Source: Thermofilum pendens Hrk 5
GTDB lineage: Archaea; Thermoproteota; Thermoprotei; Thermofilales; Thermofilaceae
NCBI RefSeq assembly: GCF_000015225.1
Contig: NC_008698.1
Coordinates: 1,200,001-1,232,000 of the forward strand
Reading direction: 5' to 3'
Length of the DNA stretch: 32,000 nucleotides
Below the pieces are notes generated by a model. The model was given only the letters and a program-made list of their open reading frames with translations. It had not been told where the DNA came from and made no database searches. How positions within the stretch are numbered: the stretch's first letter is position 1; the number at the start of each line of letters is the position of its first letter. Made by a program: the position numbers and the translations under genes. Below are positions 11,861 to 30,542 of this stretch, piece after piece.

Positions 11861-11911
11861 GCGTATAAACCTGTGCGCAACGGATATAGGGGCCCTCCGA
11901 CAGGTAGCCTT

Positions 11912-13276
11912 ATGGGCTGCAGGGCCCTCCTTCTAGCGACCTGGGGCAACCCGGCCCAGTGGAACACCGCGAGGTACGAGCTGGGAGGAGAGAGCGACGA
12001 GTCCTTCACGAGCCTCGGGATCCTCTGCAGGCACCTCTCCAAGTCCGGGTGCGAGGCCAGAGCCCTCGTGCTCGTCCTGGAGAGCCTGCTCGACGCGAAG
12101 CTCGACAAGGAGCCCGACGGGAAGAGGCCCGGCTACGCGTACCTCTACGAGCGGAGGGAGGAGCTCGCGCGCCTTAGGGGTCTGCTCCTCGAGGGTAGGT
12201 ACGGCGAGGCGGTGGAGGGGCTCCGCTCCGTCGTCGAGGGCCTCGCGAAGAGCGCGGGCGCCGGGTGCAGCGGGGGAGTAGCGGTGGAGGTGCTACCGGC
12301 TATAGGCTCGTTCGGGGGCGGGGTGCGCTTCGCGGGCGACGTGCGGAACTTCCACTCCTTCGCGCTCCTCGCCGCCGCCAGGGAGGTGTTGCGAGGCGGC
12401 CCCGCGCCTTCGAAGATAGTGGTCGACCTCACCCACGGGGTGAACTTCATGCCGACCTACGCGTACGAGGTCGCCCGGGAGGCCGCGTCCCTATCGCTAC
12501 TCGCCGGCTCGCGGTCCGTCGAGATGGAAGTCTACAACTCGGACCCCTACCCGCCGGGCTCCGAGAAGCCCAGCCTCTCCCTGAACCTAGTGAGGAGGGA
12601 GGAGGTCCGCGAGATAAGGCTACCCTCCGAGGCGGGCAGCCTGGTGGAGTGGCGCGGCGGCAGGCCGCCGAGCAGGTTCGAGGAGTTCAGGGCCCGAGCG
12701 TCGAGGTTCATGGGCGAGAAGGTCTACCCCGTGGTAGCCTCCCTCTACTACCCGCTACCCCTAGCCCTCGTCTACCTAGCCTCGGCTCAGAGTTGGGAGG
12801 AGTACCTGGGCGTAGTCGAGGAGGCCAGGAGCCTCTGGGCCTCGTACACCAGGGTCTCCGGCGGGACCGTCGAGCGCCCAGTCTACGTGAACCCCCAGGC
12901 TGTCTACGCGGCGCTACTCGCGGCGGCAGCCTGCAAGGCGGTGAGGGAGGAGGGGCTCTCGAACGACGTCGAGTCGCTCGAGAAGCTGAACGAGAGGGTG
13001 TACAGGAGGGTCTCCGAGGTCCACTACGCGCTGATAGCGCAGGAGCTCTCCCAGGTCGAGGCCGGGAGGTTCGAGGAAGCCGCCTACCCCCGCAAGCCGG
13101 ACAAGAGGATCATGATCGCGCACGCCGGGTTGCAGAAGGGCTTCGTGAGGGTCGAGAGGGGTGAGAAGAAGCTCCTGCTCTACGTAGGCGCAGACGGGAA
13201 GCCCCTCAAGCCGGAAGACCCCTCGGCCGCCGAGAGCGTGCGAAGCCTCCTCGCGAAGGCCGGGCTGAAGCACTAG
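11912..13276 (+). CDS. csx1: CRISPR-associated CARF/HEPN protein, Csx1 family (DxTHG type)
   Basis: Start at ATG 11912; the track ORF upstream of that is antisense to the MBL gene. N-terminal LLATWGNPAQW...Y is CARF-like. DxTHG motif VVDLTHGVNF. C-terminal R-x4-H HEPN motif KRIMIAHAGL. Confidence 0.75.
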   Translation: MGCRALLLATWGNPAQWNTARYELGGESDESFTSLGILCRHLSKSGCEARALVLVLESLLDAKLDKEPDGKRPGYAYLYERREELARLRGLLLEGRYGEAVEGLRSVVEGLAKSAGAGCSGGVAVEVLPAIGSFGGGVRFAGDVRNFHSFALLAAAREVLRGGPAPSKIVVDLTHGVNFMPTYAYEVAREAASLSLLAGSRSVEMEVYNSDPYPPGSEKPSLSLNLVRREEVREIRLPSEAGSLVEWRGGRPPSRFEEFRARASRFMGEKVYPVVASLYYPLPLALVYLASAQSWEEYLGVVEEARSLWASYTRVSGGTVERPVYVNPQAVYAALLAAAACKAVREEGLSNDVESLEKLNERVYRRVSEVHYALIAQELSQVEAGRFEEAAYPRKPDKRIMIAHAGLQKGFVRVERGEKKLLLYVGADGKPLKPEDPSAAESVRSLLAKAGLKH

Positions 13277-16221: not shown

Positions 16222-16755
16222 GTGTCCGTGTCCGCCGAGTACATCGTGAAGCTCTTCGAAGAAGACCCCAAGTCCAGGAAGAGGCTCGCAGAGCTACTAG
16301 TCTCCGAGCCGGACGTAAGGCTAGCGCTGATAAACGCAGTCATACGCGACGTCGCCACGAAGCACGACGTGGAGAAGCACTGGGAAGCAACGAGGCGAGA
16401 CATAGAGGGGCTGAGGAGGGAGCTTGAGGGGCTGGAGAGGGACGTCGCGAGTCTCGCTGAGAGAGTCTCAAGGCTCGAAGGAGCATACGCAGAGCTAAGC
16501 AAGAGGATAGACAGCCTCGGCGAGAGGATAAGCGACCTAGACAAGAGAATAGACTCGCTCGATAAGAGGATCGACGGGCTAGACAAGAGGATAGACTCAC
16601 TGGATAAAAGGATAGAGTCCCTGGACAAGAGGATAGACAGCCTGGACAAAAGGCTAGACCACATCGCGAAGATCTCCTACACCCTCACAGCCTCAGTCCT
16701 CGCAACACTCGCGGCAAGCATCATACTCCTCGCAATCATCAGGATACACCCCTAG
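16222..16755 (+). CDS. coiled-coil protein with heptad tandem repeats and C-terminal TM anchor
   Basis: 177 aa with a GTG start. The central run is (L/S)DKRIDS heptads. C-terminal hydrophobic helix YTLTASVLATLAASIILLAII. Confidence 0.6.
   Translation: MSVSAEYIVKLFEEDPKSRKRLAELLVSEPDVRLALINAVIRDVATKHDVEKHWEATRRDIEGLRRELEGLERDVASLAERVSRLEGAYAELSKRIDSLGERISDLDKRIDSLDKRIDGLDKRIDSLDKRIESLDKRIDSLDKRLDHIAKISYTLTASVLATLAASIILLAIIRIHP
16498..16665 (+). repeat. tandem 21-nt (heptad-coding) repeat, about 8 units
   Basis: Units of gacaagaggatagacagcctg type encode SKRIDSL/GERISDL/DKRIDSL/DKRIDGL/DKRIDSL/DKRIESL/DKRIDSL/DKRLDH. The copies differ mostly at synonymous positions. Confidence 0.7.
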
Positions 16756-16768
16756 CCCCGGACACCCG

Positions 16769-17206
16769 GTGAGAAGCCTGGAGGAGATTAAGTTCTACGA
16801 GATAGACCTCGAAAAAGTAGTCGAAACGCTGAAAAAGTACTTCGAGAAGAGAAGCGACGTCGCAGTAGCAGTCCTATTCGGCTCCGCGCTCAGAAGAAGA
16901 AAAGTCAGAGACATAGACATCGCGGTACACGCAGACTGGAGCCTAGAAGAACTACTCGAAGCCACCGCAGAGCTAGAAAAAGAGCTGGGAACCCCCGTAG
17001 ACATCGTACCCCTACCCAACGCCCCACCACAAGTAAGACTAAAAGCGCTGGCAGAAGGCCTACCCATAACCGTGAAAAACCACGCACTCTACACAGAGCT
17101 ACTCAAAGAGGCAATCGGGGAAACAAGAGACATGGAGGCAAAACTCAGAGAAGAACGCCGGGCAAAAGATCGTCGACAACGGCGAGGAGAGACGGCGAAG
17201 ACTTAA
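16769..17206 (+). CDS. minimal nucleotidyltransferase (MNT-type, Pol-beta superfamily) protein
   Basis: LFGSALRRRKVRDIDIAV gives the G-S...D-x-D nucleotidyltransferase motif. No adjacent HEPN/DUF86 partner is visible. The 3' end overlaps the convergent gene by ~60 nt. Confidence 0.7.
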   Translation: MRSLEEIKFYEIDLEKVVETLKKYFEKRSDVAVAVLFGSALRRRKVRDIDIAVHADWSLEELLEATAELEKELGTPVDIVPLPNAPPQVRLKALAEGLPITVKNHALYTELLKEAIGETRDMEAKLREERRAKDRRQRRGETAKT

Positions 17207-18128
17207 CCACAACCCCGAACTCGACGCTCCTGTACAGCGAGTCCCCCGTGAGGTTAGCACTCGAGAGCAAAACCTCCCCCTCAGACGCGTAGATATTCGC
17301 GTGCAGAGGCTTCTCCGTGAACTCAACGTCCAAGCCGGGGTACCGCGCAACCCCCTGACCCTTTACGGTCACGAGCGTAGCACTCCTCCCCGGGCCAGCC
17401 TCCCGCAAAGCCCTAACAACGAGCCCAAGCCCCTCGTCGTCCACGCGGGGCGTCACGAGCACGGGCTCCCTGTACGTGTACACCACGTGCGCGACGGCAA
17501 CCGCGACCACCGGCTCATCCTCCCTACCCCTAACGTACCAGTACTCCGCGGGCTCCCGGAGGTGCTCGCACCCAACGTAGAGCTGGTCAACCATCCGCTC
17601 AAACAAGGCGCTAACAACATAGCTGTTGAAGGGCTTCTCAGGGGCCTCGCCGCCCCCAGCAGGACTAACGGGGAGCCCCAGCCTCATCATAACGCCGTTC
17701 CAGTACCTCATCTCGCCCCCAAGCTCCCTCACGGCGTCCATAGCGTTGAAGCTACGGCGGGAGCAGAGGTACGAGAGGAAAACCCTCAAGGGATACCAGG
17801 ACAGCATAACCCTCCTCACAGCCTCGACGCACCCCCTACTCCCCGGCTCCGAGCAAGCACCAGCAACATCCCTCGCAAGCCTCGTCGCGTAGTAGGCTTT
17901 CCCGCTGTACGAGAGAAGCCCCGAGTGCCACCCCAGCCTCAGGTAGCCCGACGCGTCGCTAGGGTGGAGACCGAGAGCGTCTGCGATCGTCTTGGCGTCC
18001 ACCTTTCTCAACGAGGACGCGAGCCTCAGCATCTCGGCGAACTTCTCGAGGTCGAAGGACGTGACGCCCTTGCTTTCGAAGTACGTTTTCCCAGCGTCGA
18101 GGAGCGTCTTCACGAACCTAAGCTCCAA
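17145..18128 (-). CDS. PLD-like (HKD-superfamily nuclease-like) protein with helical/wHTH-like N-terminal region; variant active-site motif
   Basis: C-terminal LHANIYASEGEVLLSSANLTGDSL resembles HxK(x4)D(x6)GSxN but reads H-x-N...E...SSAN. TTG start, with GGTTAAAGTT ~35 nt upstream on the minus strand. Confidence 0.45.
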   Translation of the reverse strand: MELRFVKTLLDAGKTYFESKGVTSFDLEKFAEMLRLASSLRKVDAKTIADALGLHPSDASGYLRLGWHSGLLSYSGKAYYATRLARDVAGACSEPGSRGCVEAVRRVMLSWYPLRVFLSYLCSRRSFNAMDAVRELGGEMRYWNGVMMRLGLPVSPAGGGEAPEKPFNSYVVSALFERMVDQLYVGCEHLREPAEYWYVRGREDEPVVAVAVAHVVYTYREPVLVTPRVDDEGLGLVVRALREAGPGRSATLVTVKGQGVARYPGLDVEFTEKPLHANIYASEGEVLLSSANLTGDSLYRSVEFGVVVKSSPSLLAVVDDLLPGVLL

Positions 18129-19330: not shown

Positions 19331-20080
19331 GAAGCAACTGTGAAAGCATTGAAAGGTAAGTAACGTTGGCAGTTACGAGGTAGCCCCGCGGAGCCCGAAG
19401 CAACTGTGAAAGCATTGAAAGTCTCCTCAAGCTTCTCCGCCAGTTGCCCGATCCTCTCGAAGCAACTGTGAAAGCATTGAAAGGAGGCACTGCTGGAGGC
19501 GGCCAGGGTGCTCAACGTCAGCGGAAGCAACTGTGAAAGCATTGAAAGGCTCATTACGCCTCACCCACCAGCAATGCGGCTTGGTAGACTGAAGCAACTG
19601 TGAAAGCATTGAAAGTTCGAGCAAATGAGCGTGGACGAGCTGCGGCAGGAAGTGCTGATGTGGGAAGCAACTGTGAAAGCATTGAAAGAAGTTTCACTCT
19701 TTCGAGCTCGTCGGTCGTCTTCTTTAGTATGAAGCAACTGTGAAAGCATTGAAAGTTACGTATGAGTTCATCGACACCGGCAAGCAGGTTCACGAAGCAA
19801 CTGTGAAAGCATTGAAAGACCAGGACCGAGAGCCGCTGCTCCAGCTCCGGGCTCAAGAAGCAACTGTGAAAGCATTGAAAGTTCGGAGGGATTTCCCAGC
19901 GGTTGCGACGTCTATTGCACGGAGAAGCAACTGTGAAAGCATTGAAAGTTACTCGCCAAGCGCTGTGAAAGGCTCGGCGCAGTGGGGGAAGCAACTGTGA
20001 AAGCATTGAAAGGGATATACGCCACGGAGGAGGTCGCCAGGAGCCTCGGCTCCGCGAAGCAACTGTGAAAGCATTGAAAG
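19331..20080 (+). CRISPR. CRISPR array 1: 12 identical 25-nt repeats GAAGCAACTGTGAAAGCATTGAAAG, 11 spacers (37-48 nt)
   Basis: Repeats start at 19331, 19397, 19459, 19524, 19591, 19664, 19731, 19794, 19857, 19924, 19988 and 20056. Plus orientation is supported by the upstream leader/promoter and by the 3' ATTGAAAG typical of crenarchaeal 8-nt crRNA 5' handles. Confidence 0.97.
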
Positions 20081-20105
20081 GCTCGTGCTCGCCGTGTAGC
20101 TTCCG

Positions 20106-20594
20106 TTACTGGTCTTCGACGCGTTGGCTCTGTCGTGGCCCGGAGGCTTCGCGGTCTCGGTGGGGCACAAGGCTTTGGGGCGTCCTGCTGTCGAGGAGTG
20201 GCCTGGACGCGGGTAGTCTTTCTGCGCGTCGTGGTGTTTGCTTTTCCCCGCCCACCCTGGAAAAAGTTGTTTTCGCGTGGAGGGCGAGTAGGACCGCGTT
20301 GTGGAGTGCTGCCGCTGCTCTCACCGCGGATGCCGCCGCTACTGGGGCGTTGGAGGCGCTGGGCGGGAGGCCTAGCTTCCCGGCTACTCTGCGCAGGGCG
20401 TAGGCTAGGAGCGCGAGGAGTAGGATTACGAGAACTTCTCTCAGGGCTAGGAGGAGGGGGTTTCCCAGGAGGGCGGCCGTGTTGGGGTTTGCCTCGTAGA
20501 ACGCCCCGGTGGAGAGGGCGGCGTATGTCGAGGCTATGTCGCAGGCGCTCGAAGCGGCGTACACCGATACCCAGAACTTCAGCCCTCTGCCCAC
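20106..20594 (-). CDS. small membrane protein, DUF5658-like N-terminal part with non-descript tail
   Basis: SACDIASTYAALSTGAFYEANP resembles the D..ST...G..E.NP pattern, and there are three hydrophobic helices. GTG start without a convincing promoter. The last ~55 aa are low-quality sequence that begins at a repeated motif (20250-20280). Confidence 0.35.
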   Translation of the reverse strand: MGRGLKFWVSVYAASSACDIASTYAALSTGAFYEANPNTAALLGNPLLLALREVLVILLLALLAYALRRVAGKLGLPPSASNAPVAAASAVRAAAALHNAVLLALHAKTTFSRVGGEKQTPRRAERLPASRPLLDSRTPQSLVPHRDREASGPRQSQRVEDQ

Positions 20595-20853
20595 CCGGGA
20601 AAAAGGGTTTTTCGCGGGGGCTTAGCGCTGGGAGGTTTTCAGCGCCCTGTAGACTTCTTTCGCGTCGTGCTTGAGCGCGCCGACCTCTTCGAGTATCCTG
20701 AGCATCTGGAGGTACACGCTACCGGCGTTCGTGGCTACCTCGACGGGTGCGTCGCCGCAACCGAACCCTCTAAGCTCCCCCTGGTTGCCAGGAGGATCTT
20801 CACGGTTCTCTCGGCGACTTCTTCCACGGCTCCCACCCCCAAGGGAAAAAACG

Positions 20854-21183
20854 CTACGCTTTCAGGGTGCGCGGAGCCGGGTAGAGCCTCCGGACGGCCT
20901 CCAGCAGTGCCTCCCCCTTCTCCGGGTCGAGGAGGGTCCAGTCCCTCCAGGAGAACGCCCTCGCGTAGACGGTGTTCTCCGGCACTCTCACAGCGACGAA
21001 GGCTCCCCCGACGCGCAGCGACAGCCTGTAGCCTGCAAGCCTCCACTCGCCCTCCCTGTACGCGTAGACCGCCCTCACGCGTAGCAGGGGGGCTAGGGAG
21101 CGCGCGTCCCGCGCAAGCGCGCCTGTAACGGCGTCCACGAACGCCTCGAAGCACCGCGGGGGCACAGGGCTAACGCGCCTCAC
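20854..21183 (-). CDS. hypothetical protein (109 aa)
   Basis: Coding-like composition. The start overlaps the upstream ORF stop by 4 nt. The stop is followed directly by a T6 tract on the minus strand (20846-20851). No domain recognised. Confidence 0.45.
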   Translation of the reverse strand: MRRVSPVPPRCFEAFVDAVTGALARDARSLAPLLRVRAVYAYREGEWRLAGYRLSLRVGGAFVAVRVPENTVYARAFSWRDWTLLDPEKGEALLEAVRRLYPAPRTLKA

Positions 21184-21536
21184 TCCTCGAAATCCCCCAC
21201 GACGACGTCCTCGCCTTTGAAGAGGTCGAGGAGCGCGGAGAGGAAGGAGCCTCCCCGCCTCAGCGGGGTAGACGCGACGAGCTCGCGGCCCAGGTAGACG
21301 GAGACGCGGTCCTCCTGCACCACCAGCACGTACTCGTCTATGCAGAGCTCCAGCTTAGCCTCCACGACTAGCCACTCGTCGGAAACCCCGTCGACCACGG
21401 AGACCTTCTCGAGCCTGAAGCAGTCGAAGAAAACCCTGGAACACACAACCCCCATCGCCGCCCCCGCAGGGTCCAAGTCGACGGCGCAGGCAAGCAACTC
21501 CGCGTAAGCCAAGACAACGGACCTCACACACCCCAC
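21180..21536 (-). CDS. hypothetical acidic protein (118 aa)
   Basis: Coding-like composition with an acidic C-terminus. GTG start at 21536, or the internal ATG at 21455. Translationally coupled to the downstream ORF. No domain recognised. Confidence 0.45.
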   Translation of the reverse strand: MGCVRSVVLAYAELLACAVDLDPAGAAMGVVCSRVFFDCFRLEKVSVVDGVSDEWLVVEAKLELCIDEYVLVVQEDRVSVYLGRELVASTPLRRGGSFLSALLDLFKGEDVVVGDFEE

Positions 21537-21539
21537 CCA

Positions 21540-22274
21540 GCGCGGAGAGAGGGAGCCCCGCCCTTCAAAGGCACCCCGAGCTTCGCCACCAGGCTAGCCG
21601 GGGCCGCCGCCCGAGGCACACAGCCCCGGACTCCACCCCCCGCTCATCCCCGCACCGAAGTCCAAGCAGGCTGTTCACCCGCCCGTCCCCCGGCGGAGGT
21701 CGCGAGGGGGAGCCCCACCCCCAGGCAACCCTGGGGGCTTGACCCCGGGTGGGAGGGGCTCCTCTCCCCCTCGTATCGCTGAAGGCGCTAGAAGCGTGTG
21801 AAGGGAGGGGGAGAGGGGGCTTGCCTCGGGGCGGGACTCGCCCCCCTCCCGCTTCCTCGTGGCCCGCCCGCCACCGGCGGGACGGCTTGCCTCCGGCAGG
21901 CCTTCGGGAGTAGCGACGTAACGCCGCCACCTCCTGGCAGGCCTTCATCGGCGCCCGGCGGGGAAGGCTTCATCCTCACAGCCCGCGGCTACACCCCTTA
22001 TCCGTTTCCCGGGGTTCGCGCGCGGGCTCGTCTATTCGCCGCCCGCCACGCCCTGTCCCCGCCTCGCGGCGGGGTGGGCCAGCGGCGGACGGGCACCCGC
22101 GCCCCCCTCTAGAAGAGGAGAAGCGCCCCGTAGGGGGGTTACCCTGATGCACTGCCCCCGCAACGCCTGAGAAGCGGGGGCGCCGGGCGCGGAGCATCCC
22201 CGGCCTTTAGCCGGGCGAGAGGCCCCGCGTCCCCGAGGAGCGCGTCCCCCCTAGGGCTCCCCGTTCGGGGAGCC
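21540..22274 (-). ncRNA. candidate large (~730 nt) GC-rich structured RNA or structured 5' leader, family unknown
   Basis: No credible ORF. 78-82% G+C in hand-counted lines versus ~62% in adjacent coding sequence. The promoter-like element at 22297-22311 sits at the right distance from a perfect 5' hairpin (22255-22274). There are many further perfect helices, and G-U pairs favour the minus strand. Confidence 0.4.
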
Positions 22275-22296
22275 TTCAGGATGTTCTACTTTCTTC

Positions 22297-22311
22297 CTTA
22301 AATACTTTTCG
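22297..22311 (-). promoter_or_regulatory. BRE/TATA-like promoter (minus strand)
   Basis: The minus strand reads CGAAAAG-TATTTAAG, inside the only AT-rich patch (~43% G+C in 22261-22320) between the ankyrin gene and the GC-rich segment. Confidence 0.45.
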
Positions 22312-22477
22312 GATAAGAGTCTCCGCTATCCGGGCTTCCTGGCATACCCGGCTTTAGCCCCTCGGGGCTCGGTCCCTCCGAAAGACTCCGGGCATCCGCG
22401 GAAAACACCTGCTTGCCCGGGCGAGTACTTCTGCGTCAACGTCTGCAGGCTGGTGCCCCGGGTATTCTTCGCCGCGC

Positions 22478-25090
22478 TTACCGAGTTTTCCTGAACCTGA
22501 ACATGTACCCTGAGAGCAGCGCGAAAGCGTCGGTGTCTCCTTTGATCACAGCGAGCTGTAGCGGGCTCAGCCCCTCGGAGTTCCTTATACTCGGATCCGC
22601 CCCGTGCTCTAATAGTAGCTCGATAGCTTCTCGCCGTTCCCTCCAGAAGGAATGCTCAATTACGTAGTGTAGTGGGGTGTTGCCTTCCCAGTCTCTCGCG
22701 TTGGGGTCCGCCCCGTGCTCCAGGAGCCACCTCGCGACTTCGAGGTGCTCGCGGGAGCCGAAAAACACGGCTATGTGGAGCGGCGTCTGGTCCCGGGAGT
22801 CCCTGGCGTTTACGTCTGCTCCGTGTATCAAGAGAAGCTCGGCGATCCTCAAGCAATTATCCCATGCGTTCTTGCTACACATATCTGCGTGTTCAGCTAC
22901 GTAGTGTAGCGGTGTCTCCCCGTGACTGTTCCTTGCGTTGGAGTCTGCGCCGTGCTTGAGCAGGAGCCTGACTATCTCCAGGTGCCCCCGGGCGGCGGCG
23001 TGGTGCAGTGGTGTCCCTCCGAAATCGTTCCTGGCGTCTACGTCGGCGCCGTGCTCCAACAGCAGTCTTACCGCCTCGACGTTCCCGCTGGACGTGGCTT
23101 TATGTAGCGGTGTTTCTCCGTCCTTGGTTCTCGCGTTAATGTCTGCCCCTCTCTCGATGAGGAACCTCGCAATCCCGGCGTCCCTGCACCCGGCGGCGCC
23201 GTGTAGCGGAGTCCTGTCAAACCAGTCCCTCGCGTTAATGTCTGCGCCTCTCTCGAGGAGCAGCGTGAAGACGTCCCAGCGACAACTCCTTGCCGCGTAG
23301 CAGAGCGCGTCCGCGTTTACCTCCGCGCCCCTCTCTAGTAGCAACTTCACTGCCTCGAAGTTTCCTCGCTCCGCGGCTACGTGTAGCGGTGTTTCCCCGA
23401 ACTTGTTCCTGGCATTAATGTCTGCGCCCCTCTCCAGCAGAATCTCGATAACCTCCACGTCCCCATTCCAGGCGGCGGCATGTAGCAACGTGTTGCCGTC
23501 GTTGTCCCTGGTATTGGGGTTCACGCCCCACTCAAGCAACTTCTTAACGCACTCCGGGCGCCCGCACCTTACCGCCGCGTGAAGACCGTTGCCAGGCTCT
23601 GCTCCGTGCTCCAACAGTAGCCTGATAAACTCGAGTGCTTTGTGCTCGCCTGTAAGCCAGTCCGTAATGTTATCATCGTAACAGAAAAAGGAGGAGATAA
23701 TAGCCAGCGGAGTTGAGCCTCCATACTCCTCGGCGTTCGGATCCGCCCCATGCTCTAGCAGAAGCTTCGCAGCCTCAGTGTCTTTCACAGTCGCCGCTAG
23801 GTGTAGCGGTGTCATCCCGGAGTCATTCCTTGCGTTGGGGTCTGCCCCGTGCTCGAGCAGGAGTTCTACTACCTCCGGACATCCCCGCTCCGCGGCCCAG
23901 TGTAGCGGAGTTCTTCCGTACTCGTCCTTTGCGTTAGCATCCAGACCTTTCTCTAGGAGGAGCCTGACAACCTTTGCGTAGCACCAAAAGGCCGCTTTGT
24001 GGAGTAGCGTGTAGCTATCCGAGCCGATGAGGCTGGGGTCTGCGCCCCGCTCCAGGAGTAGCCCGACGACCTTCAACGCTGTGAGCGCATCTGCGCGTAT
24101 ATACATATCCTGGCGGTGAGCCGCATAGGCTAACGGTGTAAGCCCATCGTTATCCTTAGCGTCCACATCTGCTCCGTGCTCTAGGAGTAGCTCGACGACT
24201 TCGACTTTTCCCAGTCCTGCGGCGAAGTGTAGCGGCGTCATCCCTGAGCTATTCTTCGCGTTGGGGTCTGCACCTTTCTCTAAGAGTAGCTTGGCAACCT
24301 CCATGTTTTTAAAGGCTAAGTGTAGGGGGGTATTTCCAAAGGCGTCCACAGCGCACGGGTCTGCGCCGCGCTCGAGCAAAAACTTCACCACCTCGGCGCT
24401 TCCCTCCATAGCTGCGCGGTGTAGCGGCGTTCGTCCCTCGTTGTTCCTGGCGTTTACGTCAGCCCCTCTCTCTAAGAGTAGCTTACTGACTTCTATGCTC
24501 CTAACAGCCAGGTGTAGCGGTGTATTGCCATACGTGTCCGTAGCTCCCGGATCGGCGCCCCGCTCGAGTAGCAACTTTGCGACTTCTGCGCTTCCTTGCT
24601 CAGCGGCGTAGTGAAGCGGTGTCTTCCCGGAGCTGTTCTTCGCGTTCACGTCTGCGCCTCTATCCAGCAGTAGCCTGGCTATGTCTGCAAACCCTAGTAG
24701 CGCCGCCAGGTGCAATGGAGTATTGCCTTCCTCGTCGGTGGCGTTCGGGTCTGCGCCGCGGTCGAGCAGTACCTCGGCTACGACGAAGTGCCCGTACACG
24801 GCGGCCCAGTGTAGCGGTGTCCTCCCTTTGCGACCCAGCTCGGAGCTGAGTACATCCCATGTGATCTTGTCCTTCACATTTGGGTCTGCGCCTCGCTCCA
24901 GGAGTAGCCTTGCGGCCTCGGCGTGCCCGAAGATGGCGGCGCAGTGTAGCGGAGCAAGCCCCGCGGGGCCCGCGGCGTTCGGGTCGACGCCCCCCTCTAG
25001 GAGGGCCTTCACCCTCTTCGCGTCCCCCGAGCAGACTGCCCTGAAGAGTTCTTCGACTGTTCCCGCGCGGTTCCCCTCCGGGCCCGGCAC
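22478..25090 (-). CDS. ankyrin-repeat protein (about 24 ANK repeats, 870 aa)
   Basis: Near-continuous 33-aa periodicity of G.TPLH.AA..G..E(V/I)(V/A).LLLE.GAD.NA.D. About 24 TPLH-type motifs counted. No signal peptide and no other domain. Confidence 0.9.
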   Translation of the reverse strand: MPGPEGNRAGTVEELFRAVCSGDAKRVKALLEGGVDPNAAGPAGLAPLHCAAIFGHAEAARLLLERGADPNVKDKITWDVLSSELGRKGRTPLHWAAVYGHFVVAEVLLDRGADPNATDEEGNTPLHLAALLGFADIARLLLDRGADVNAKNSSGKTPLHYAAEQGSAEVAKLLLERGADPGATDTYGNTPLHLAVRSIEVSKLLLERGADVNARNNEGRTPLHRAAMEGSAEVVKFLLERGADPCAVDAFGNTPLHLAFKNMEVAKLLLEKGADPNAKNSSGMTPLHFAAGLGKVEVVELLLEHGADVDAKDNDGLTPLAYAAHRQDMYIRADALTALKVVGLLLERGADPSLIGSDSYTLLHKAAFWCYAKVVRLLLEKGLDANAKDEYGRTPLHWAAERGCPEVVELLLEHGADPNARNDSGMTPLHLAATVKDTEAAKLLLEHGADPNAEEYGGSTPLAIISSFFCYDDNITDWLTGEHKALEFIRLLLEHGAEPGNGLHAAVRCGRPECVKKLLEWGVNPNTRDNDGNTLLHAAAWNGDVEVIEILLERGADINARNKFGETPLHVAAERGNFEAVKLLLERGAEVNADALCYAARSCRWDVFTLLLERGADINARDWFDRTPLHGAAGCRDAGIARFLIERGADINARTKDGETPLHKATSSGNVEAVRLLLEHGADVDARNDFGGTPLHHAAARGHLEIVRLLLKHGADSNARNSHGETPLHYVAEHADMCSKNAWDNCLRIAELLLIHGADVNARDSRDQTPLHIAVFFGSREHLEVARWLLEHGADPNARDWEGNTPLHYVIEHSFWRERREAIELLLEHGADPSIRNSEGLSPLQLAVIKGDTDAFALLSGYMFRFRKTR

Positions 25091-25155: not shown

Positions 25156-27243
25156 CTAGGCGGCTAAGAGCTCGTCGAGGGGTGGCTCGTAGAAGGCCTC
25201 GAAGCGCCTCCTTCTCCTGGCGACGGCTACAGCGACTAGAACGGTGGCTACGGCGGCTACGGCTACTAGGCGCGTGTAGTTCGGCGAGTAGGACACCGAC
25301 AGCGTTACGGGCGCGGTGACCAGTAGCCTTATCGAAGAGGCGTTCGGGTCCATGGTTACGAGCCCGCCGTACAGCGGCACGGGCTCCGCCTTCACCTCGA
25401 GCTGGGTGCCGGGCGCCAGGTACCTGCTGTACCTCTCCGTCCTCTCGCCGTTGACGAGCACCGGGTACTGGCTCGTAACGGTGACGAGGTAGTAGGGTTG
25501 CCAGGCTACCTCGACTGTTACCGGCGAGTCGACGCGGAACACCCCGCCGCTACTCAGGGGCGTGAACAGCGTCCCGTTCTCGAGCACTACCCGATCCGGG
25601 ACTTCGACGACTATGGAGGAGCCCGCGTCGAGCCACCCGGCGTAGCGCGTAGTCCTCGTACCGTTAACCGTTACGGGGAGGGGGCTGGAGACGACCACGA
25701 AGTGCTGAGCCTTGTAGCTCGACCTAACCTCGTAGTGCGTGAACCACGAGCTACTAGGAGTTATGGTCGGCGGGTCCTCGGTGAACCGCCCGTCCACGTA
25801 GTACCCTAAAAGCACGTACCTGGTGCGGTTGCCGTCGTACACGACGCTAGCCTTCTCGGCGAGCGTTACAGGGGAGTACACGTACCTGACGGAGCACTCC
25901 CCGGTCAACATGCTACAGTACCTGACGCTAGTCATCGGCAGGGCCGGTAGCCTCGGCCTCTCCGCGAGCTTAGCCGGGCTCAGCGCGCCTCTTTCCACGA
26001 CCGCGAAGCCGTCAGCGTACCGCACAGCCACGTTGGTAGCAGTCTCGTTTGTGCTCACGCCAAAGCTGTACAGATTCGGGAAAGGCGCCCAGCCGCCGCC
26101 CCTCCAGTAGGCAAGGGTGAGCCTCGCCTCCAGCTCGCTGAACGTAGCGTGCTCCGAGCAACAGAAACCGCAGAACACGAGCTCAACGTTCAGCGGGAGC
26201 CCACGCCCGTTCAGGTAGCTCGACGTAGCCACTATGCCGGCGCCTACGGCCGGCGGGTTAGTCCTTATGGTCACGTTGTCGTACCACGTTATAATCGCGG
26301 GCCTGTAGTCGCCGCTCTGAGCGGTGACGTAGCCGAAATCGACGTGTACAGCGCCGTTACTCGCGTAAGCCCTGACGACCAGGAAGCCTGCCAGGGGCAG
26401 GTCGCAGGGGCTGTAGGTGTACACGCACGCATAGTAGTACTCGTCCCTATCCCTGTACACACCACCGCAGCCGGATATCCTCTCGTCGCTTAGCAGGCTA
26501 AGCCGCCCCGTATTGTTCCAAATGTTGTTCCAAACCTGGTACATAATAGCCTTCTCCGTTTTGTTCTCGTACGAACGAGTACCCTCTATGCCGCCGACCA
26601 TGTTTTGAACCCAGTAGTACTGCTTCCTGCCGCCCGCCAAGGAAACCTCTACGACGGCGTTCAGCTGGAGGCTCCACGCGTCCGCCTCCGCGGCTCTACT
26701 GCTGTAGCTCTTAGCGGAGGCTGCGCTTACGTTGAAGAAGCCGAGAACCATGCTCGTATTCACCGCGACGTCCGGGTAGCTGGCAAGGCCCGCCGGCAAG
26801 CCGTAGTACCTAACGTAGACGTAGAGCCTCTCGTCCGAGTAGAAAAACACGTAGTACGAGCCGGGGCTATCTATCCTCAAGGAGACCACGCCGTAGCCTG
26901 GCACGCTAACCACCCTCAAAACCTCGATGTCACTACCCCCGCGCGCGAGGAAATGCTCACACTCCTCGGCAGTCGCCAGGTAAGCCACGGCCGGCCACGG
27001 CTGATGACTCACGAGCACGACGTACGCCGGCGCCGCGGAAACCCTAATGCTGTAGTAGCTTATCGAGCGAGGAAGCAGCGAAACCCTCTCGGCGCGCACG
27101 CATCGAGCTACGAGTAGAAGCAGGACTACCGCTACAAGCCCAACCCTAAACAACCAACGCGAAACCAGCAAACACCCCCACCTCGTGTGTATATCGACAC
27201 AAACCTCTGATTTTTGAACACATGGCGTTGCCAGCCCTACCAT
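25156..27243 (-). CDS. thermopsin-like (peptidase A5-like) surface protein with signal peptide and C-terminal TM anchor
   Basis: WSLQLNAVV...YYWVQNMVGG...VWNNIWNNTG resembles the thermopsin domain core. Many N-x-S/T sequons. C-terminal LVAVAAVATVLVAVAVARRRRR anchor. The coordinates give the maximal ORF; the true start is probably the TTG at 27171, because 27220-27252 looks like a CRISPR spacer. Confidence 0.55.
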   Translation of the reverse strand: MVGLATPCVQKSEVCVDIHTRWGCLLVSRWLFRVGLVAVVLLLLVARCVRAERVSLLPRSISYYSIRVSAAPAYVVLVSHQPWPAVAYLATAEECEHFLARGGSDIEVLRVVSVPGYGVVSLRIDSPGSYYVFFYSDERLYVYVRYYGLPAGLASYPDVAVNTSMVLGFFNVSAASAKSYSSRAAEADAWSLQLNAVVEVSLAGGRKQYYWVQNMVGGIEGTRSYENKTEKAIMYQVWNNIWNNTGRLSLLSDERISGCGGVYRDRDEYYYACVYTYSPCDLPLAGFLVVRAYASNGAVHVDFGYVTAQSGDYRPAIITWYDNVTIRTNPPAVGAGIVATSSYLNGRGLPLNVELVFCGFCCSEHATFSELEARLTLAYWRGGGWAPFPNLYSFGVSTNETATNVAVRYADGFAVVERGALSPAKLAERPRLPALPMTSVRYCSMLTGECSVRYVYSPVTLAEKASVVYDGNRTRYVLLGYYVDGRFTEDPPTITPSSSWFTHYEVRSSYKAQHFVVVSSPLPVTVNGTRTTRYAGWLDAGSSIVVEVPDRVVLENGTLFTPLSSGGVFRVDSPVTVEVAWQPYYLVTVTSQYPVLVNGERTERYSRYLAPGTQLEVKAEPVPLYGGLVTMDPNASSIRLLVTAPVTLSVSYSPNYTRLVAVAAVATVLVAVAVARRRRRFEAFYEPPLDELLAA
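27196..27219 (-). repeat. degenerate terminal CRISPR repeat of array 2
   Basis: CTGATTTTTGAAC (27207-27219) matches the distal half of the repeat (CTGATTTTGAAC) with one extra T, while the other half has decayed. It lies exactly 33 nt (spacer-sized) from repeat 27253. Confidence 0.5.
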
Positions 27244-27252
27244 CGCGGTTCG

Positions 27253-28098
27253 CTCTTAGTCTTGCTGATTTTGAACAGGGTGGCTTGATGGTGTGATCCA
27301 CAACCTTGCCTCTTAGTCTTGCTGATTTTGAACTAAGGACGTCGAGACTATGGAGCCACTCGCCTGTATCTCTTAGTCTTGCTGATTTTGAACTTGCACG
27401 GGGCGACCACGCCGATACCCGGTATGGCGACCACGGTTATTCTCTTAGTCTTGCTGATTTTGAACGCGACGCCGGGCGAGGCGATGTGGGCGCCGAAGGC
27501 GCTCTCTTAGTCTTGCTGATTTTGAACCGAGCTGGAGAGGCTTGCGATAATCGGGGCAATAAGCGATTTCTCTTAGTCTTGCTGATTTTGAACATGTAGC
27601 AGGCTACTGCGGAGTCGCGTCCGCCGCTAACTCTTAGTCTTGCTGATTTTGAACTCGCGAGATCCAAGACACTCAGAACTTGGTTCAAGCTTAATACTCT
27701 TAGTCTTGCTGATTTTGAACGGTGACGGGAAGCACAGGGTCTTCGAGTTCGTGGGCTTGCTCTTAGTCTTGCTGATTTTGAACGCGCATATGCGGGGGGA
27801 CGGAACCGACTAAACGTCTCTTAGTCTTGCTGATTTTGAACTTGAACGGAGCAGGCGGGGCGGGGTGAACCGGTAGGTTTTGGGCGCTCTTAGTCTTGCT
27901 GATTTTGAACGGCCCTCCAGAGGGAGGGCATACTGCCGCCTTAGCCAAGCTCCCTACTCTTAGTCTTGCTGATTTTGAACTCTGGCATGGTTGCTAGGGT
28001 AAGATCCGTTCCTCTTAGTCTTGCTGATTTTGAACTGAAGAACATAAACGAGGCTATACTAGGTACTAGCGCGCCTCTTAGTCTTGCTGATTTTGAAC
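27253..28098 (-). CRISPR. CRISPR array 2: 14 identical 24-nt repeats (plus strand CTCTTAGTCTTGCTGATTTTGAAC; transcribed form GTTCAAAATCAGCAAGACTAAGAG), 13 spacers (31-48 nt)
   Basis: Repeats start at 27253, 27310, 27370, 27442, 27504, 27570, 27631, 27697, 27760, 27818, 27887, 27957, 28012 and 28075. Minus orientation is inferred from the AT-rich leader and BRE/TATA on the right side and the degenerate repeat at the left end. The array itself is certain; its orientation is moderately supported. Confidence 0.95.
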
Positions 28099-28908: not shown

Positions 28909-29622
28909 TTGCAGTACAACGACCTCGACAGGCTCGACCTCTTCACCAGGGTGACGGGGGTTCTCGAGAACCTCACGCCGCTGAGGGTGGGCGCTGGCAG
29001 GGAGGCTCAGCTCGGCTCCCCGGTCGACTTGGAGCCGTTGAGGGTTAGGCTCGGGGATAGGAGCGTCCCCTACATACCCGGTAGTAGCTTGAAGGGTGTG
29101 TTCAGGAGCCTGGCGGAGGCTATAGCGAGGGCTGAGGGGCACGTTATCCACGACCCGTGGGACTTCGAGGCGGCCGAGCAGGAGGCGCGGGACGGGAAGT
29201 ACTGCCTGATATGCGGCATATTCGGTAGCACGAGGCTGGCGAGCCACGTGAGGATCTACGACGCCTACCCGAAGGGGACTCCCACGCTGTTCATGAAGAC
29301 GGGCGTCGGGATTAACAGGGACTTCCGGGGGGCTCACCCGAACATCCTCTACACCGAGCGCCAGGTGGAGCCGGGGCACAGGTGGAGCTTCATGATGGAC
29401 ATCGTGAACATAAGGGTGTACCCGGAGCCCGGGGACGAGAGGGGCAGGATCCTGAGGAGGGTTCTCGACATGCTCGCCGAGGGGATGGTCCAGGTCGGCG
29501 CCAGGAAGACTGTGGGCTACGGGCTCCTCAGGCTAGTGGAGGGCGAGTACGTCGTGTACGGGGTTAGGGACGGCAGGCTCCAGCGCCTAGAGTCCGGGAA
29601 GATAGGGGGTGGTGCGGTTTGA
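28909..29622 (+). CDS. csm3: type III RAMP backbone subunit Cas7 (Csm3-like)
   Basis: LRVGAG...SPVD...VPYIPGSSLKGVFRS, CLICGIFGS, and the C-terminal G-rich loop VGARKTVGYG. TTG start with an AGGTGA SD 6 nt upstream. Confidence 0.8.
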   Translation: MQYNDLDRLDLFTRVTGVLENLTPLRVGAGREAQLGSPVDLEPLRVRLGDRSVPYIPGSSLKGVFRSLAEAIARAEGHVIHDPWDFEAAEQEARDGKYCLICGIFGSTRLASHVRIYDAYPKGTPTLFMKTGVGINRDFRGAHPNILYTERQVEPGHRWSFMMDIVNIRVYPEPGDERGRILRRVLDMLAEGMVQVGARKTVGYGLLRLVEGEYVVYGVRDGRLQRLESGKIGGGAV

Positions 29623-30542
29623 GCCAGGTCCCGTGGTCCTCGCACAGGGTCCTCCTCAGGGAGGCAGTCTTCAGGGGCTACCTCGTCGCCGAGTCTCCGC
29701 TGAGGGTGGGCGCTGGCAGGGAGGCGCCGCTGGGCTCCCCGGTGGACCTCTCGGTCCTCAGGGTTAGGCTTGGCGGTAAAAGCGTCCCCTACATACCCGG
29801 CAGTAGCCTGAAGGGTGTGTTCAGGAGCTTCTCCCAGTCCCTCGCAGTGGCGAAGGGGCTAAGCGTGTGCAGCGGGCTGAGCGGGGAGACGTGCATGGAC
29901 TACGAGGACCCGTCGCTGGGCGGCGAGAAGTTGCTGAGCTACTTGCAGGGGCTGATGAGGGAGGGGCACAGCCTGGAAGCCGTCAGGCTGTTCCACGAGA
30001 AGGCCTGCCTGATGTGCAAGGTCTTCGGCGCCCCCTCGTTCTCCGGGCACGTCGAGTTCAGCGACGCCTACCCCGTCGACGAGAAGGGGGGCGTCGTCGA
30101 CGTCTCCACCGGGGTGAGGACGGGCATAGCGATAAACAGGAGGACGGGCGCCGTCTACGAGAGGGCCCTCTACCAGGTCGAGTACGTCGAGCCGGGCGCG
30201 AGGTTCAGGTTCGAGGCTAGGACTACGAACCTCCCCAACTACGCGCTCGGGCTCCTCTCCGCCGTCATCAGGATGATGAACGAGGGCTGGGTCAGGGTGG
30301 GCGGCTTCAAGACGAGGGGCTTCGGAGAGGTGCGCGTGGAGGGCCTGGAGTTCGCGGCTAGGGGCGCGACTGTCCGCGGCTCGGTGCTGGTGAAGCTCGA
30401 CGACTACGACTCGGACGTCGACCTCTCGGGCCTCGCCGAGGCCAGGGACGGGTGGCTAAGGGCCTCCGGGGACTCCGCCTGGAAGGCGCTGGCTAAGCTC
30501 GAGGAGGTGTGGTCCAATGCAAGCTTCGGGAAGCGCGGTTAG
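29619..30542 (+). CDS. type III RAMP subunit, second Cas7 paralogue (Csm3/Csm5-like, with insertion)
   Basis: Same N-terminal block (LRVGAGREAPLGSPVD...VPYIPGSSLKGVFRS), CLMCKVFGA, VGGFKTRGFG. Its start overlaps the upstream stop. Confidence 0.75.
   Translation: MSQVPWSSHRVLLREAVFRGYLVAESPLRVGAGREAPLGSPVDLSVLRVRLGGKSVPYIPGSSLKGVFRSFSQSLAVAKGLSVCSGLSGETCMDYEDPSLGGEKLLSYLQGLMREGHSLEAVRLFHEKACLMCKVFGAPSFSGHVEFSDAYPVDEKGGVVDVSTGVRTGIAINRRTGAVYERALYQVEYVEPGARFRFEARTTNLPNYALGLLSAVIRMMNEGWVRVGGFKTRGFGEVRVEGLEFAARGATVRGSVLVKLDDYDSDVDLSGLAEARDGWLRASGDSAWKALAKLEEVWSNASFGKRG

Follow-up and report, generated by a model that had tools for sequence, protein, structure and literature searches.

A G+C-rich, hairpin-dense non-coding element ahead of two orphan genes in Thermofilum pendens: a candidate structured leader

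What is the function, if any, of an exceptionally G+C-rich segment that lies between two CRISPR arrays of the Thermofilum pendens Hrk5 chromosome and appears to encode no protein? The locus came to attention through a prediction, made from sequence alone, that it specifies a new large structured RNA with a promoter of its own. We have analysed it within its window, by which we mean the whole 32,000-nt stretch of DNA under study, and positions below are those of the window. The segment is indeed non-coding, G+C-rich, dense in hairpins and preceded by a promoter, but neither a defined fold nor a terminator of its own was found. The reading that we tentatively prefer, at somewhat less than an even chance, is that the element is the transcribed 5′ leader, ~740 nt long, of a two-gene operon specific to T. 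pendens, or a precursor co-transcribed with it. We regard it as a clearly delimited candidate rather than a discovery: with no relatives found, it is at most a putative new structured RNA.

A non-coding G+C outlier between CRISPR arrays

The element has, as originally noted, a CRISPR array on either side (19331-20080 and 27253-28098) and lies upstream of two genes of unknown function, ORF118 and ORF109; the minus strand carries all the neighbouring genes. Its coordinates proved correct (Table 1), and 60-nt G+C counts made by hand for the original prediction (47, 49, 37 and 26 of 60) were exact on recount, although the overall G+C content is 74.7% and not the ~80% proposed. Even so, no other 735-nt segment of the window reaches this value, the window mean being 63.2-63.3% (sd 5.3%), and individual 60-nt lines across the element range from 65 to 82%. 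Other non-coding stretches in the window have 46-64.5% G+C, non-coding DNA elsewhere in it being richer in A+T than the genes are.

The element is a non-coding outlier in which the signals of a hidden coding sequence are absent. Both flanking genes are strongly codon-periodic whereas the element is flat throughout, the G+C content of its three phases being 0.73, 0.75 and 0.75 compared with 0.88, 0.33 and 0.73 in the adjacent ORF. The frames that do cross it had been dismissed as shadow frames rich in Arg, Gly and Pro, and this view is borne out: in the four of at least 60 aa these residues make up 45-51% of the total, and an exact look-up of all four in a collection of 15 billion proteins returned no entry. 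A protein search with a shadow ORF of 127 aa found no homologue and not even an annotation of the frame itself.

Table 1. Features of the element and its downstream genes (window positions; probabilities are predicted base-pair probabilities)
Feature	Positions	Strand	Remarks
BRE/TATA promoter-like element CGAAAAG-TATTTAAG	22297-22311	minus	Sequence reading
Element body	21540-22274	minus	735 nt, 74.7% G+C, hairpin-dense, no codon periodicity
Perfect 8-9 bp hairpin GGCUCCCC-GAAC-GGGGAGCC	22255-22274	minus	Probability 0.90 at 85 °C
Stem CGCGGGGC/GCUCCGCG around hairpin CCCGGC-UAAAG-GCCGGG (22199-22215)	22188-22229	minus	Probabilities 0.86 and 0.94 at 85 °C
8-bp stem GCCCCCGC/GCGGGGGC, 14-nt loop	22153-22182	minus	Sequence and MFE structures
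7-bp hairpin CCCCGCC-GCGA-GGCGGGG	22057-22074	minus	Sole GNRA loop of the element, minus strand only
Helix GGAG-GUGGCGGC...GUCGCUAC-UCC	21907-21934	minus	6-bp core, two G-U pairs, probability 0.89 at 85 °C
Nested or competing long helices	21703-21816	minus	9 bp with probability 0.86 at 85 °C
Weak alternative TATA-like CTTTGAAG	21563-21570	minus	~30 nt upstream of GTG 21536, no BRE
Shine-Dalgarno-like GGGUGGGG (21531-21538) and two candidate GTG starts (21536, 21527)	21525-21538	minus	
ORF118, hypothetical protein found only in T. pendens	21180-21536	minus	Strong codon periodicity
ORF109 (ABL78680.1 / WP_011752945.1), orphan	20854-21183	minus	Predicted alpha-beta3-alpha
T6 run	20846-20851	minus	3 nt past the ORF109 stop; first strong oligo-T terminator after the promoter

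Local hairpins and global fold

The hairpin density of the element is above chance and above what its composition would lead one to expect. Measured against 60 dinucleotide shuffles, the minimum free energy (MFE) of the whole element has z-scores of -5.1 (minus strand) and -4.0 (plus strand) at 37 °C and of -4.3 and -4.8, respectively, at 85 °C, so that folding energy lies below that of the shuffles on both strands equally. T. pendens grows at about 85-90 °C. In sliding windows of 150 nt, z ranges from -1.3 to -4.3 within the element and is around zero in the flanking genes, local values being consistently negative inside the element only. The hairpins originally pointed out (at 22255-22274 and 21718-21737, GCCCCCGC/GCGGGGGC, CCCGGC/GCCGGG and at 21907-21934) are all there, and the CGCGGGGC/GCUCCGCG stem is found at 37 °C as well as at the higher temperature. 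In the region of the long helices, a 10-bp helix (21703-21712/21764-21773) encloses another (21709-21720/21751-21762) together with the apical 21718-21737 hairpin; a 12-bp pairing (21761-21772/21805-21816) is also predicted there, and not all of these helices can form at once.

A defined large RNA architecture is, by contrast, not indicated by the folding models. The minus-strand ensemble at 85 °C is no better defined than those of the shuffles (z of -0.01 for diversity and -0.45 for entropy), and no more than 46 pairs stay robust at 37 °C as well as at 85 °C. Nor does structure reveal the strand. It had been argued that the G-U pairs of the 21907-21934 helix, which exist only on the minus strand, fix the orientation of the RNA. 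The helix and its G-U pairs are real features of the sequence but the argument fails, since folding is equally significant on the two strands, the most robust helices are nearly all pure Watson-Crick, and GNRA and UNCG loops occur at background frequency without enrichment. Only one of the 26 tetraloop hairpins in the element has a GNRA loop, which equals the window background of ~4%, and the GCGA loop at 22057-22074 is for this reason no evidence for strand. Assignment of a strand from structure was accordingly rejected, z-scores, G-U counts and special tetraloops all showing no preference. The short internal direct repeats that had been noted do exist, but at chance level and without periodicity, and neither Tandem Repeats Finder nor autocorrelation detected tandem or modular repeats in the element.

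Promoter, downstream genes and a possible leader

The predicted minus-strand BRE/TATA, CGAAAAG-TATTTAAG, is present at 22311-22297 and fits the local consensus, resembling the promoters of PEP carboxylase (GCGAAAAGATAGATATTTT), the CRISPR-1 leader (GAGAAAAGGATTTATAG) and gene 2276 (GCGAAAGGTTCTTATCG). No promoter match in the window is better. In the 64 kb of both strands, nine sites show [CG]GAAA[AG] with an AT-rich octamer after it, compared with 5.0 ± 2.0 in shuffles, and three of the eight other sites lie directly upstream of gene starts. The centre of the TATA element is ~26 nt upstream of the 22255-22274 hairpin and, because this is the standard archaeal spacing between TATA and start, the transcript would be expected to begin at this 5′ hairpin, about 22274-22279. 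Of the two marks of a stand-alone RNA gene, a promoter of its own is thus predicted, from sequence evidence only, while an oligo-T terminator of its own before the next gene is missing. There is no minus-strand run of at least four T between 22400 and 21434; the sole such run before T6 is a T4 at 21433-21430, already inside ORF118, which makes a stand-alone gene doubtful. The proposal of an independent gene therefore stands as regards the promoter and falls as regards the terminator, the first strong one following ORF109.

The arrangement downstream looks like that of an operon. The start of ORF109 overlaps the stop of ORF118 by 4 nt, and the next gene, encoding a DUF5658 protein, has a BRE/TATA of its own (GCGAAAAACCCTTTTTCCC at 20615-20597) that delimits the unit running from the promoter to ORF109. 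The database protein for ORF118 begins at 21527, and the SD-like GGGUGGGG that precedes the ORF is more in keeping with an internal start behind a leader than with leaderless translation. The simplest reading is a single unit composed of promoter, structured leader of ~740 nt, ORF118, ORF109 and T6. Such an arrangement would be out of the ordinary: crenarchaeal mRNAs are mostly leaderless and only rarely carry several hundred nucleotides of leader.

Were this reading correct, transcription would start at ~22274-22279 under the direction of the BRE/TATA at 22311-22297, and the RNA would open with a perfect G-C hairpin. The polymerase would then traverse 735 nt of stable local stem-loops, meeting no oligo-T terminator, and continue through ORF118 and ORF109 to stop at the T6 run directly after the latter. 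The G+C-rich hairpins could hold the RNA folded at growth temperature and that at the 5′ terminus might shield it from 5′-end decay, while the 3′ end of the leader might occlude GGGUGGGG and the GTG starts. In this way the leader may set the stability and the translation of two small orphan proteins.

Several observations count against a leader. The weak CTTTGAAG, if active, could give ORF118 its own promoter, as may be supposed from its sequence, and a T4CTT at 21433-21427 could end a stand-alone RNA of ~840 nt. The poorly defined minus-strand ensemble also tells against it. Occlusion of the start codons is not a robust prediction, being seen at 37 °C only: the SD/GTG stretch (21525-21538) pairs with 21770-21800 in the MFE structure at that temperature but is mostly open at 85 °C. 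Finally, no homologues that could lend a function evolutionary support were found in our searches.

The two proteins offer few clues. Nothing significant was found for either in Pfam, NCBIfam or PADLOC, and neither belongs to a PADLOC defence family; a 'ribonuclease P' match of ORF118 was discarded as noise (E = 0.12; 12.8 bits where the cut-off is 175). AlphaFold2 models were built from single sequences and are of poor to moderate quality, that of ORF118 being uninformative (pLDDT 45). The predicted beta-hairpin of ORF109 resembles SnoaL/NTF2-like repeats, the match being to one 954-aa SnoaL/NTF2-repeat protein.

Contigs of the Logan runs SRR9438659 and SRR9438660 were considered as transcript evidence and set aside, since they read as low-coverage genomic DNA. 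Two of them end within the element, and the same run gives a multi-gene contig of 6.2 kb. A literature search found no paper on T. pendens transcriptomes, on the locus or on these runs.

Relatives, rival explanations and known systems

Searches for relatives of the element were uniformly unsuccessful. The original prediction had been unable to place it in a known RNA family, and none was found here: cmscan with 4227 families of Rfam 15 gave no match at gathering score in the whole 32-kb window. Relaxed searches with 801 and 1801 nt yielded only generic hairpins of miRNA precursors (E 0.2-10, 14-22 bits compared with thresholds of 34-108). Two exact motifs from the element gave a single chance match among viral contigs, to a contig of 69% G+C, with no extended similarity. 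Three distant archaeal loci of low G+C, none of them from T. pendens, were fetched through the neighbouring DUF5591 gene and not through the element itself, and contain no copy of it. ORF118 and ORF109 are similarly isolated, finding no relatives besides themselves in 5.8 billion protein clusters or in metagenome or viral contigs.

This isolation favours the strongest rival to a leader, which is that the element is an inert or DNA-level feature, a G+C-rich remnant of foreign or mobile DNA that arrived together with the orphan ORF118/ORF109 cassette. Its inverted repeats, which are short and mostly perfect, would then reflect G-run and C-run composition or mutational processes and not selection on RNA. 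We consider this unlikely on balance. The strand-symmetric structure signal, the pure Watson-Crick nature of the robust helices and the ill-defined global fold are all as it would predict, and in the element runs of at least four G or C reach 2-3 times the density seen in most of the window's 1-kb bins. Against it, the neutral non-coding DNA of the window has 46-64% G+C, so that a value of 75% needs explaining, and a promoter of consensus quality is directed into the element. Equally, terminal inverted repeats were not seen, the window holds no further copy, blastn gave no match to plasmid or phage records, and canonical G-quadruplex motifs are absent. A spacer of the adjacent CRISPR array shares 17 exact nucleotides with ORF109; this stretch is in codon register and hints, weakly, at descent from a mobile element. 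However, the spacer matches at just 27 of 40 positions overall, which is no outlier. The same spacer is absent from the viral contigs searched, and CRISPR spacers do not match the element.

The second rival, in essence the original prediction, is a stand-alone structured non-coding RNA of ~740-840 nt, transcribed from the 22311-22297 promoter and acting in trans or in a particle. It might be partnered with the two small downstream proteins, and either processing or weak termination at the T4CTT might free it. This too is unlikely, and we place it below an inert remnant. A strong predicted promoter followed by ~740 nt without an ORF recalls the CRISPR leader promoter, while 75% G+C in a hyperthermophile, hairpins above chance and a hairpin at the 5′ terminus are what might be expected of such an RNA; the weak internal TATA could uncouple the ORFs from it. 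ORF109, with its alpha-beta3-alpha prediction, has dsRNA-binding domains among its top matches to solved structures, though these are far from significant (E 0.4-1, TM 0.2-0.33). On the other side stand the lack of a canonical terminator at the end of the element, of any Rfam match and of any homologue or paralogue in our searches, and hence of covariation. Folding significance shared by both strands, an ensemble resembling those of shuffles with its few robust pairs, and special tetraloops at background frequency also speak against it. More specifically, a lineage-specific RNA of this size, with its own promoter, might form a new ribonucleoprotein with the co-transcribed ORF118 and ORF109, which we regard as improbable. 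Its position among defence genes, comprising CRISPR arrays, Csx1 and RAMPs, suggests a possible link of such a particle, if it exists, to defence.

The remaining rivals are largely refuted. A hidden or decayed protein gene, for instance a frameshifted Gly/Pro/Arg-rich protein, is very improbable: although the minus-strand frame 22206-21568 is open but for one stop, such frames are expected at 75% G+C, and the flat phase composition, the Arg/Gly/Pro content and the lack of a homologue for the 127-aa ORF are joined by the failure of 12 degenerate 24-nt seeds, back-translated from two frames of the element, to match metagenome contigs or, for the first six, viral contigs. Least probable of all is a divergent known RNA that was missed (RNase P, SRP, an rRNA fragment, a group II intron or an H/ACA or C/D guide), for while size and G+C content fall within the range of archaeal structured RNAs, and a GGAGUCCGGGGC stretch is loosely reminiscent of the P4 strand of RNase P, cmscan offered only the generic hairpins described above and ARAGORN found no tRNA or tmRNA gene in the window.

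Comparison with known systems yields only partial likenesses. Composition screens by Klein, Misulovin and Eddy in 2002 reportedly found G+C-rich non-coding RNA genes of hyperthermophiles (Hgc; HgcC, E, F and G in Rfam). Like these, the element is a G+C-rich island in the non-coding DNA of a hyperthermophile, with an archaeal promoter and stable helices. Hgc RNAs, however, are of 100-300 nt, come from genomes rich in A+T, end in terminators of their own and are shared between species, whereas the element has 735 nt, lies in a region of 63% G+C, and has no homologue found, no terminator and no match to an Hgc model. With OLE, GOLLD, HEARO, ROOL and raiA it shares a length of several hundred nucleotides, many helices, non-coding status and, in some cases, a place beside partner protein genes. 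Those families, however, are all from bacteria or phages and owe their definition to covariation in many genomes. The element matches none of them and lacks both found relatives and a demonstrably defined global fold. Type III toxin-antitoxin systems of the ToxIN kind similarly combine promoter, non-coding RNA and small protein genes, and the defence surroundings are also alike. Their RNA antitoxins, however, consist of short tandem repeats (units of ~30-40 nt) followed by a terminator, whereas the element has neither tandem periodicity nor terminator and its proteins have no PADLOC match.

There is also a resemblance in layout to structured 5′ leaders such as riboswitches, ribosomal-protein leaders and RNA thermometers. 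The element likewise lies between a promoter and a first ORF with no terminator in between, and its 3′ end can pair, though not robustly, with the SD-like and start-codon region; it differs in being ~5-10 times longer than known ones and in containing no known aptamer. The value of the case is limited by the apparent confinement of the element to one species, which leaves no room for a comparative proof of structure and in which any function may be idiosyncratic. Should the RNA prove real and stable, it would join the handful of large structured RNAs other than ribosomal ones, or of very long structured leaders, that are known from Crenarchaeota, and would provide a test case for the maintenance of RNA structure near 90 °C.

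Composition, coding status and folding

In the Thermofilum pendens Hrk5 chromosome, from which the window derives, the element (21540-22274) has a G+C content of 74.7%, ranging from 65 to 82% in single 60-nt lines. It is the most G+C-rich 735-nt stretch of the window (735-nt mean 63.2%, s.d. 5.3%), in sharp contrast with the remaining non-coding stretches at 46-64.5%. The original prediction had put the figure at about 80%, which is too high, but its description of the segment as a compositional outlier stands and its four 60-nt hand counts were exact on recount. The element is also non-coding, as had been proposed. Its G+C hardly varies with codon phase (0.73/0.75/0.75), making it, together with the CRISPR arrays, the least periodic DNA of the window; the values are 0.88/0.33/0.73 for ORF118 and 0.87 at the third position for ORF109, the two orphan genes just downstream. 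The four ORFs of at least 60 aa in the element are shadow frames composed to 45-51% of Arg, Gly and Pro.

Every hairpin quoted in the original prediction was found where it had been placed, and the element is denser in hairpins than chance would give, on both strands. Whole-element folding z-scores, from 60 dinucleotide shuffles, are -5.1 at 37 °C and -4.3 at 85 °C for the minus strand; the plus strand gives -4.0 at 37 °C and -4.8 at 85 °C. In sliding 150-nt windows z lies between -1.3 and -4.3 all across 21525-22274 and around 0 in the flanking genes. G-U pairs had been thought to fix the strand, an argument that does not hold, since the two strands fold with equal significance; of the seven most robust helices, six contain at most one such pair. 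GNRA and UNCG tetraloops are no more frequent than the background of the window, and the short internal direct repeats remarked upon earlier lack periodicity and are as frequent as expected by chance.

Competing folds are numerous in long G+C-rich sequences, this one included. Just seven helices, with 46 base pairs between them, are probable at 37 as well as at 85 °C (see Table), and on the minus strand at 85 °C ensemble diversity (z -0.01) and positional entropy (z -0.45) are at shuffle level, the plus-strand ensemble being slightly better defined (z about -2). The element therefore contains many stable local stem-loops, while a unique large architecture is not demonstrable. The feature itself is real, and its non-coding status, compositional anomaly and hairpin excess are shown. 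One of its motifs, GCATCCCCGGCCTTTAGCCGGG (22194-22216), reappears in diverged form as GCATACCCGGCTTTAGCCCC at 22342-22365, in the 3' region of the ankyrin gene just upstream of the promoter; this could reflect either a small duplication or coincidence.

Coordinates and characteristics of the element, its signals and neighbouring features
Feature	Position	Strand	Remarks
Element	21540-22274	minus	735 nt
BRE/TATA promoter-like sequence	22312-22296	minus	CCGAAAAGTATTTAAGG; matches promoters of clear genes in the window
Comparison promoter, PEP carboxylase			GCGAAAAGATAGATATTTT
Comparison promoter, gene at 2276			GCGAAAGGTTCTTATCG
Comparison promoter, CRISPR-1 leader			GAGAAAAGGATTTATAG
Comparison promoter, gene at 18128			GGAAAGGTTAAAGTTT
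Robust helix, 5' hairpin			probable at 37 and 85 °C
Robust helix, CCCGGC/GCCGGG hairpin			within CGCGGGGC/GCUCCGCG stem; probable at 37 and 85 °C
Robust helix	21912-21928		contains G-U; probable at 37 and 85 °C
Robust helix, 9 bp			UCUCCCCCU/AGGGGGAGA; probable at 37 and 85 °C
ORF118	21180-21536	minus	T. pendens hypothetical protein P0001
ORF109	20854-21183	minus	identical to ABL78680.1 / WP_011752945.1
CRISPR array 1	19331-20080		repeat GAAGCAACTGTGAAAGCATTGAAAG
CRISPR array 2	27253-28098		repeat CTCTTAGTCTTGCTGATTTTGAAC
Csx1 gene	11222-13276		
RAMP gene	29619-30542		

Proposed transcription unit

The promoter string of the original prediction is present. The BRE-plus-AT-octamer pattern has nine sites on both strands of the window (5.0 ± 2.0 in shuffles), and three of the other eight lie immediately upstream of gene starts. 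The centre of an archaeal TATA box lies about 26 nt upstream of the transcription start, and the predicted start would fall at around 22274-22279; the perfect hairpin GGCUCCCC-GAAC-GGGGAGCC has its first base at this predicted start.

Judged from sequence, a consensus promoter points into the element, and no terminator precedes the ORFs. Downstream on the minus strand, the first run of at least four T is a T4 at 21433-21430, within ORF118, and the first strong oligo-T is a T6 at 20851-20846, 3 nt past the ORF109 stop codon. The reading frames of ORF118 and ORF109 share 4 nt, the Shine-Dalgarno-like GGGUGGGG precedes the annotated ORF118 start (GTG 21527), as is expected where a start is leadered or internal, and DUF5658, the gene that follows, carries a BRE/TATA of its own (20615-20597). 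Together these features make a single unit the simplest architecture: it would comprise the promoter, a G+C-rich leader of about 740 nt, ORF118, ORF109 and the T6. In the 37 °C MFE model the ORF118 start-codon region pairs with 21770-21800, a possible interaction that is mostly gone at 85 °C.

We infer that the element is transcribed from the minus strand, and that its high G+C content and hairpins are maintained by selection for an RNA that is stable at high temperature. Neutral non-coding DNA of the window is A+T-richer than genes, which makes 75% G+C difficult to account for in another way. Our leading, though tentative, reading is that the element forms a long, structured 5' leader of the orphan ORF118-ORF109 operon, or a precursor transcribed together with it. 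In this model the RNA would gain stability from its 5' hairpin, and ORF118 translation might be modulated by the leader.

Relatives and alternative origins

ORF118 and ORF109 had no homologue but themselves in 5.8 billion protein clusters. A full HMMER scan, in which ORF109 was run against 1.84 billion representatives, added one match, a 954-aa protein with six SnoaL/NTF2-like repeats (CaMKII_AD/DUF4440), whose C-terminal β-hairpin residues 35-82 of ORF109 resemble (E = 2.3e-8); the same residues match all six repeats. The predicted ORF109 fold is α-β3-α (pLDDT 68.6), and its best Foldseek matches in the PDB include dsRNA-binding domains, not significantly (E above 0.3).

Relatives of the element were sought through two translated open frames, giving 12 degenerate 24-nt seeds. 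None of the 12 found one in metagenome contigs, nor did the first six in viral contigs, and exact motifs scanned in the viral collection gave one chance match. A genome-collection scan with the neighbouring DUF5591 gene returned three distant low-G+C archaea lacking the element, and not T. pendens itself. Two contigs from independent public Logan short-read assemblies, 19815-21864 (L001, SRR9438660) and 20186-21635 (L002, SRR9438659), match the window at 100% identity, and each stops within the element, at 21864 and 21635, respectively. They are read as genomic rather than as transcripts because a 6.2-kb contig carrying several genes came from the same run and the literature gave no citation of the runs; the breaks are consistent with low-coverage genomic DNA and drop-out at G+C-rich hairpins. 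The novel large structured RNA originally predicted is unproven, comparative proof being impossible with present public data.

It is unlikely, if the best of the alternatives, that the element is a remnant of foreign DNA, either inert or a DNA-level feature, that arrived together with the orphan cassette. The element has no plasmid or phage similarity; one spacer in CRISPR array 1 (19484-19523) hints weakly at mobile-element ancestry, as its first 17 nt exactly match the ORF109 coding strand (20874-20913), 1.4 kb away, in codon register (EALLEA...; EALLEAARVLNVS versus EALLEAVRRLYPA). Elsewhere, 27 kb of the window holds no chance 17-mer repeats (expectation about 0.03), but the total identity of 27/40 is unremarkable and no outlier. 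A mobile-element homologue of ORF109 is a possible source of the spacer.

Close to this in probability, and marginally less likely, is a stand-alone large ncRNA. Two features would allow for it: a weak, BRE-less TATA-like CTTTGAAG lies about 30 nt before GTG 21536, and the T4CTT run at 21433-21427 could terminate an RNA of about 840 nt. The element resembles G+C-rich RNA genes from composition screens in hyperthermophiles, large bacterial ncRNAs and structured leaders, but lacks an Rfam match, a terminator of its own and conservation in the collections searched. Type III antitoxin RNAs have tandem repeats, whereas the element shows no tandem periodicity, ruling out a tandem-repeat array; it also has no G-quadruplex motifs and no second copy within the window. 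A lineage-specific large RNA or ribonucleoprotein is distinctly improbable.

A decayed coding gene is most improbable: the longest shadow ORF found no homologue in a protein search, and all four are absent from a collection of 15 billion proteins, so no annotation pipeline called a gene here. Least likely of all is a missed member of a known RNA family, cmscan with Rfam 15 having matched none at gathering score in the whole window; relaxed scans of 1.8 kb and 0.8 kb gave generic hairpin models (miRNA precursors) alone, far below threshold at 14-22 bits. No tRNA was detected, which rules out that class.

Genomic neighbourhood

The surroundings are a defence-rich region, with CRISPR arrays, Csx1 and RAMP genes. 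From 27243 down to 20106 all genes are on the minus strand, in the order thermopsin, an 870-aa ankyrin-repeat protein, the element, ORF118, ORF109 and the DUF5658 membrane protein. About 10 nt separate the end of the last CRISPR array 2 repeat from the thermopsin ATG downstream of it (27243-27276; gene 25156-27243). This leaves the gene no space for a promoter of its own, and it may be transcribed by read-through from the array. The ankyrin-repeat protein (22478-25090), directly upstream of the element, is built of ankyrin repeats along nearly its whole length (Pfam Ank, E = 9e-221, 21 repeats), which is unusual in a crenarchaeon and suggests horizontal acquisition.

The window's second most G+C-rich stretch (72%) lies at 11042-11860. 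In the plus-strand Csx1 ORF about 235 residues precede the CARF domain and overlap a 272-aa minus-strand ORF; the gene boundaries there are tentative. A 327-aa minus-strand protein (17145-18128) adjoining CRISPR array 1 has a C-terminal stretch resembling the phospholipase-D-like DISARM protein DrmC, at E = 2e-5, well below the family cut-off. Finally, a 21-nt tandem repeat of eight copies (16492-16659) encodes a heptad-like pattern within a 177-aa coiled-coil protein (16222-16755).
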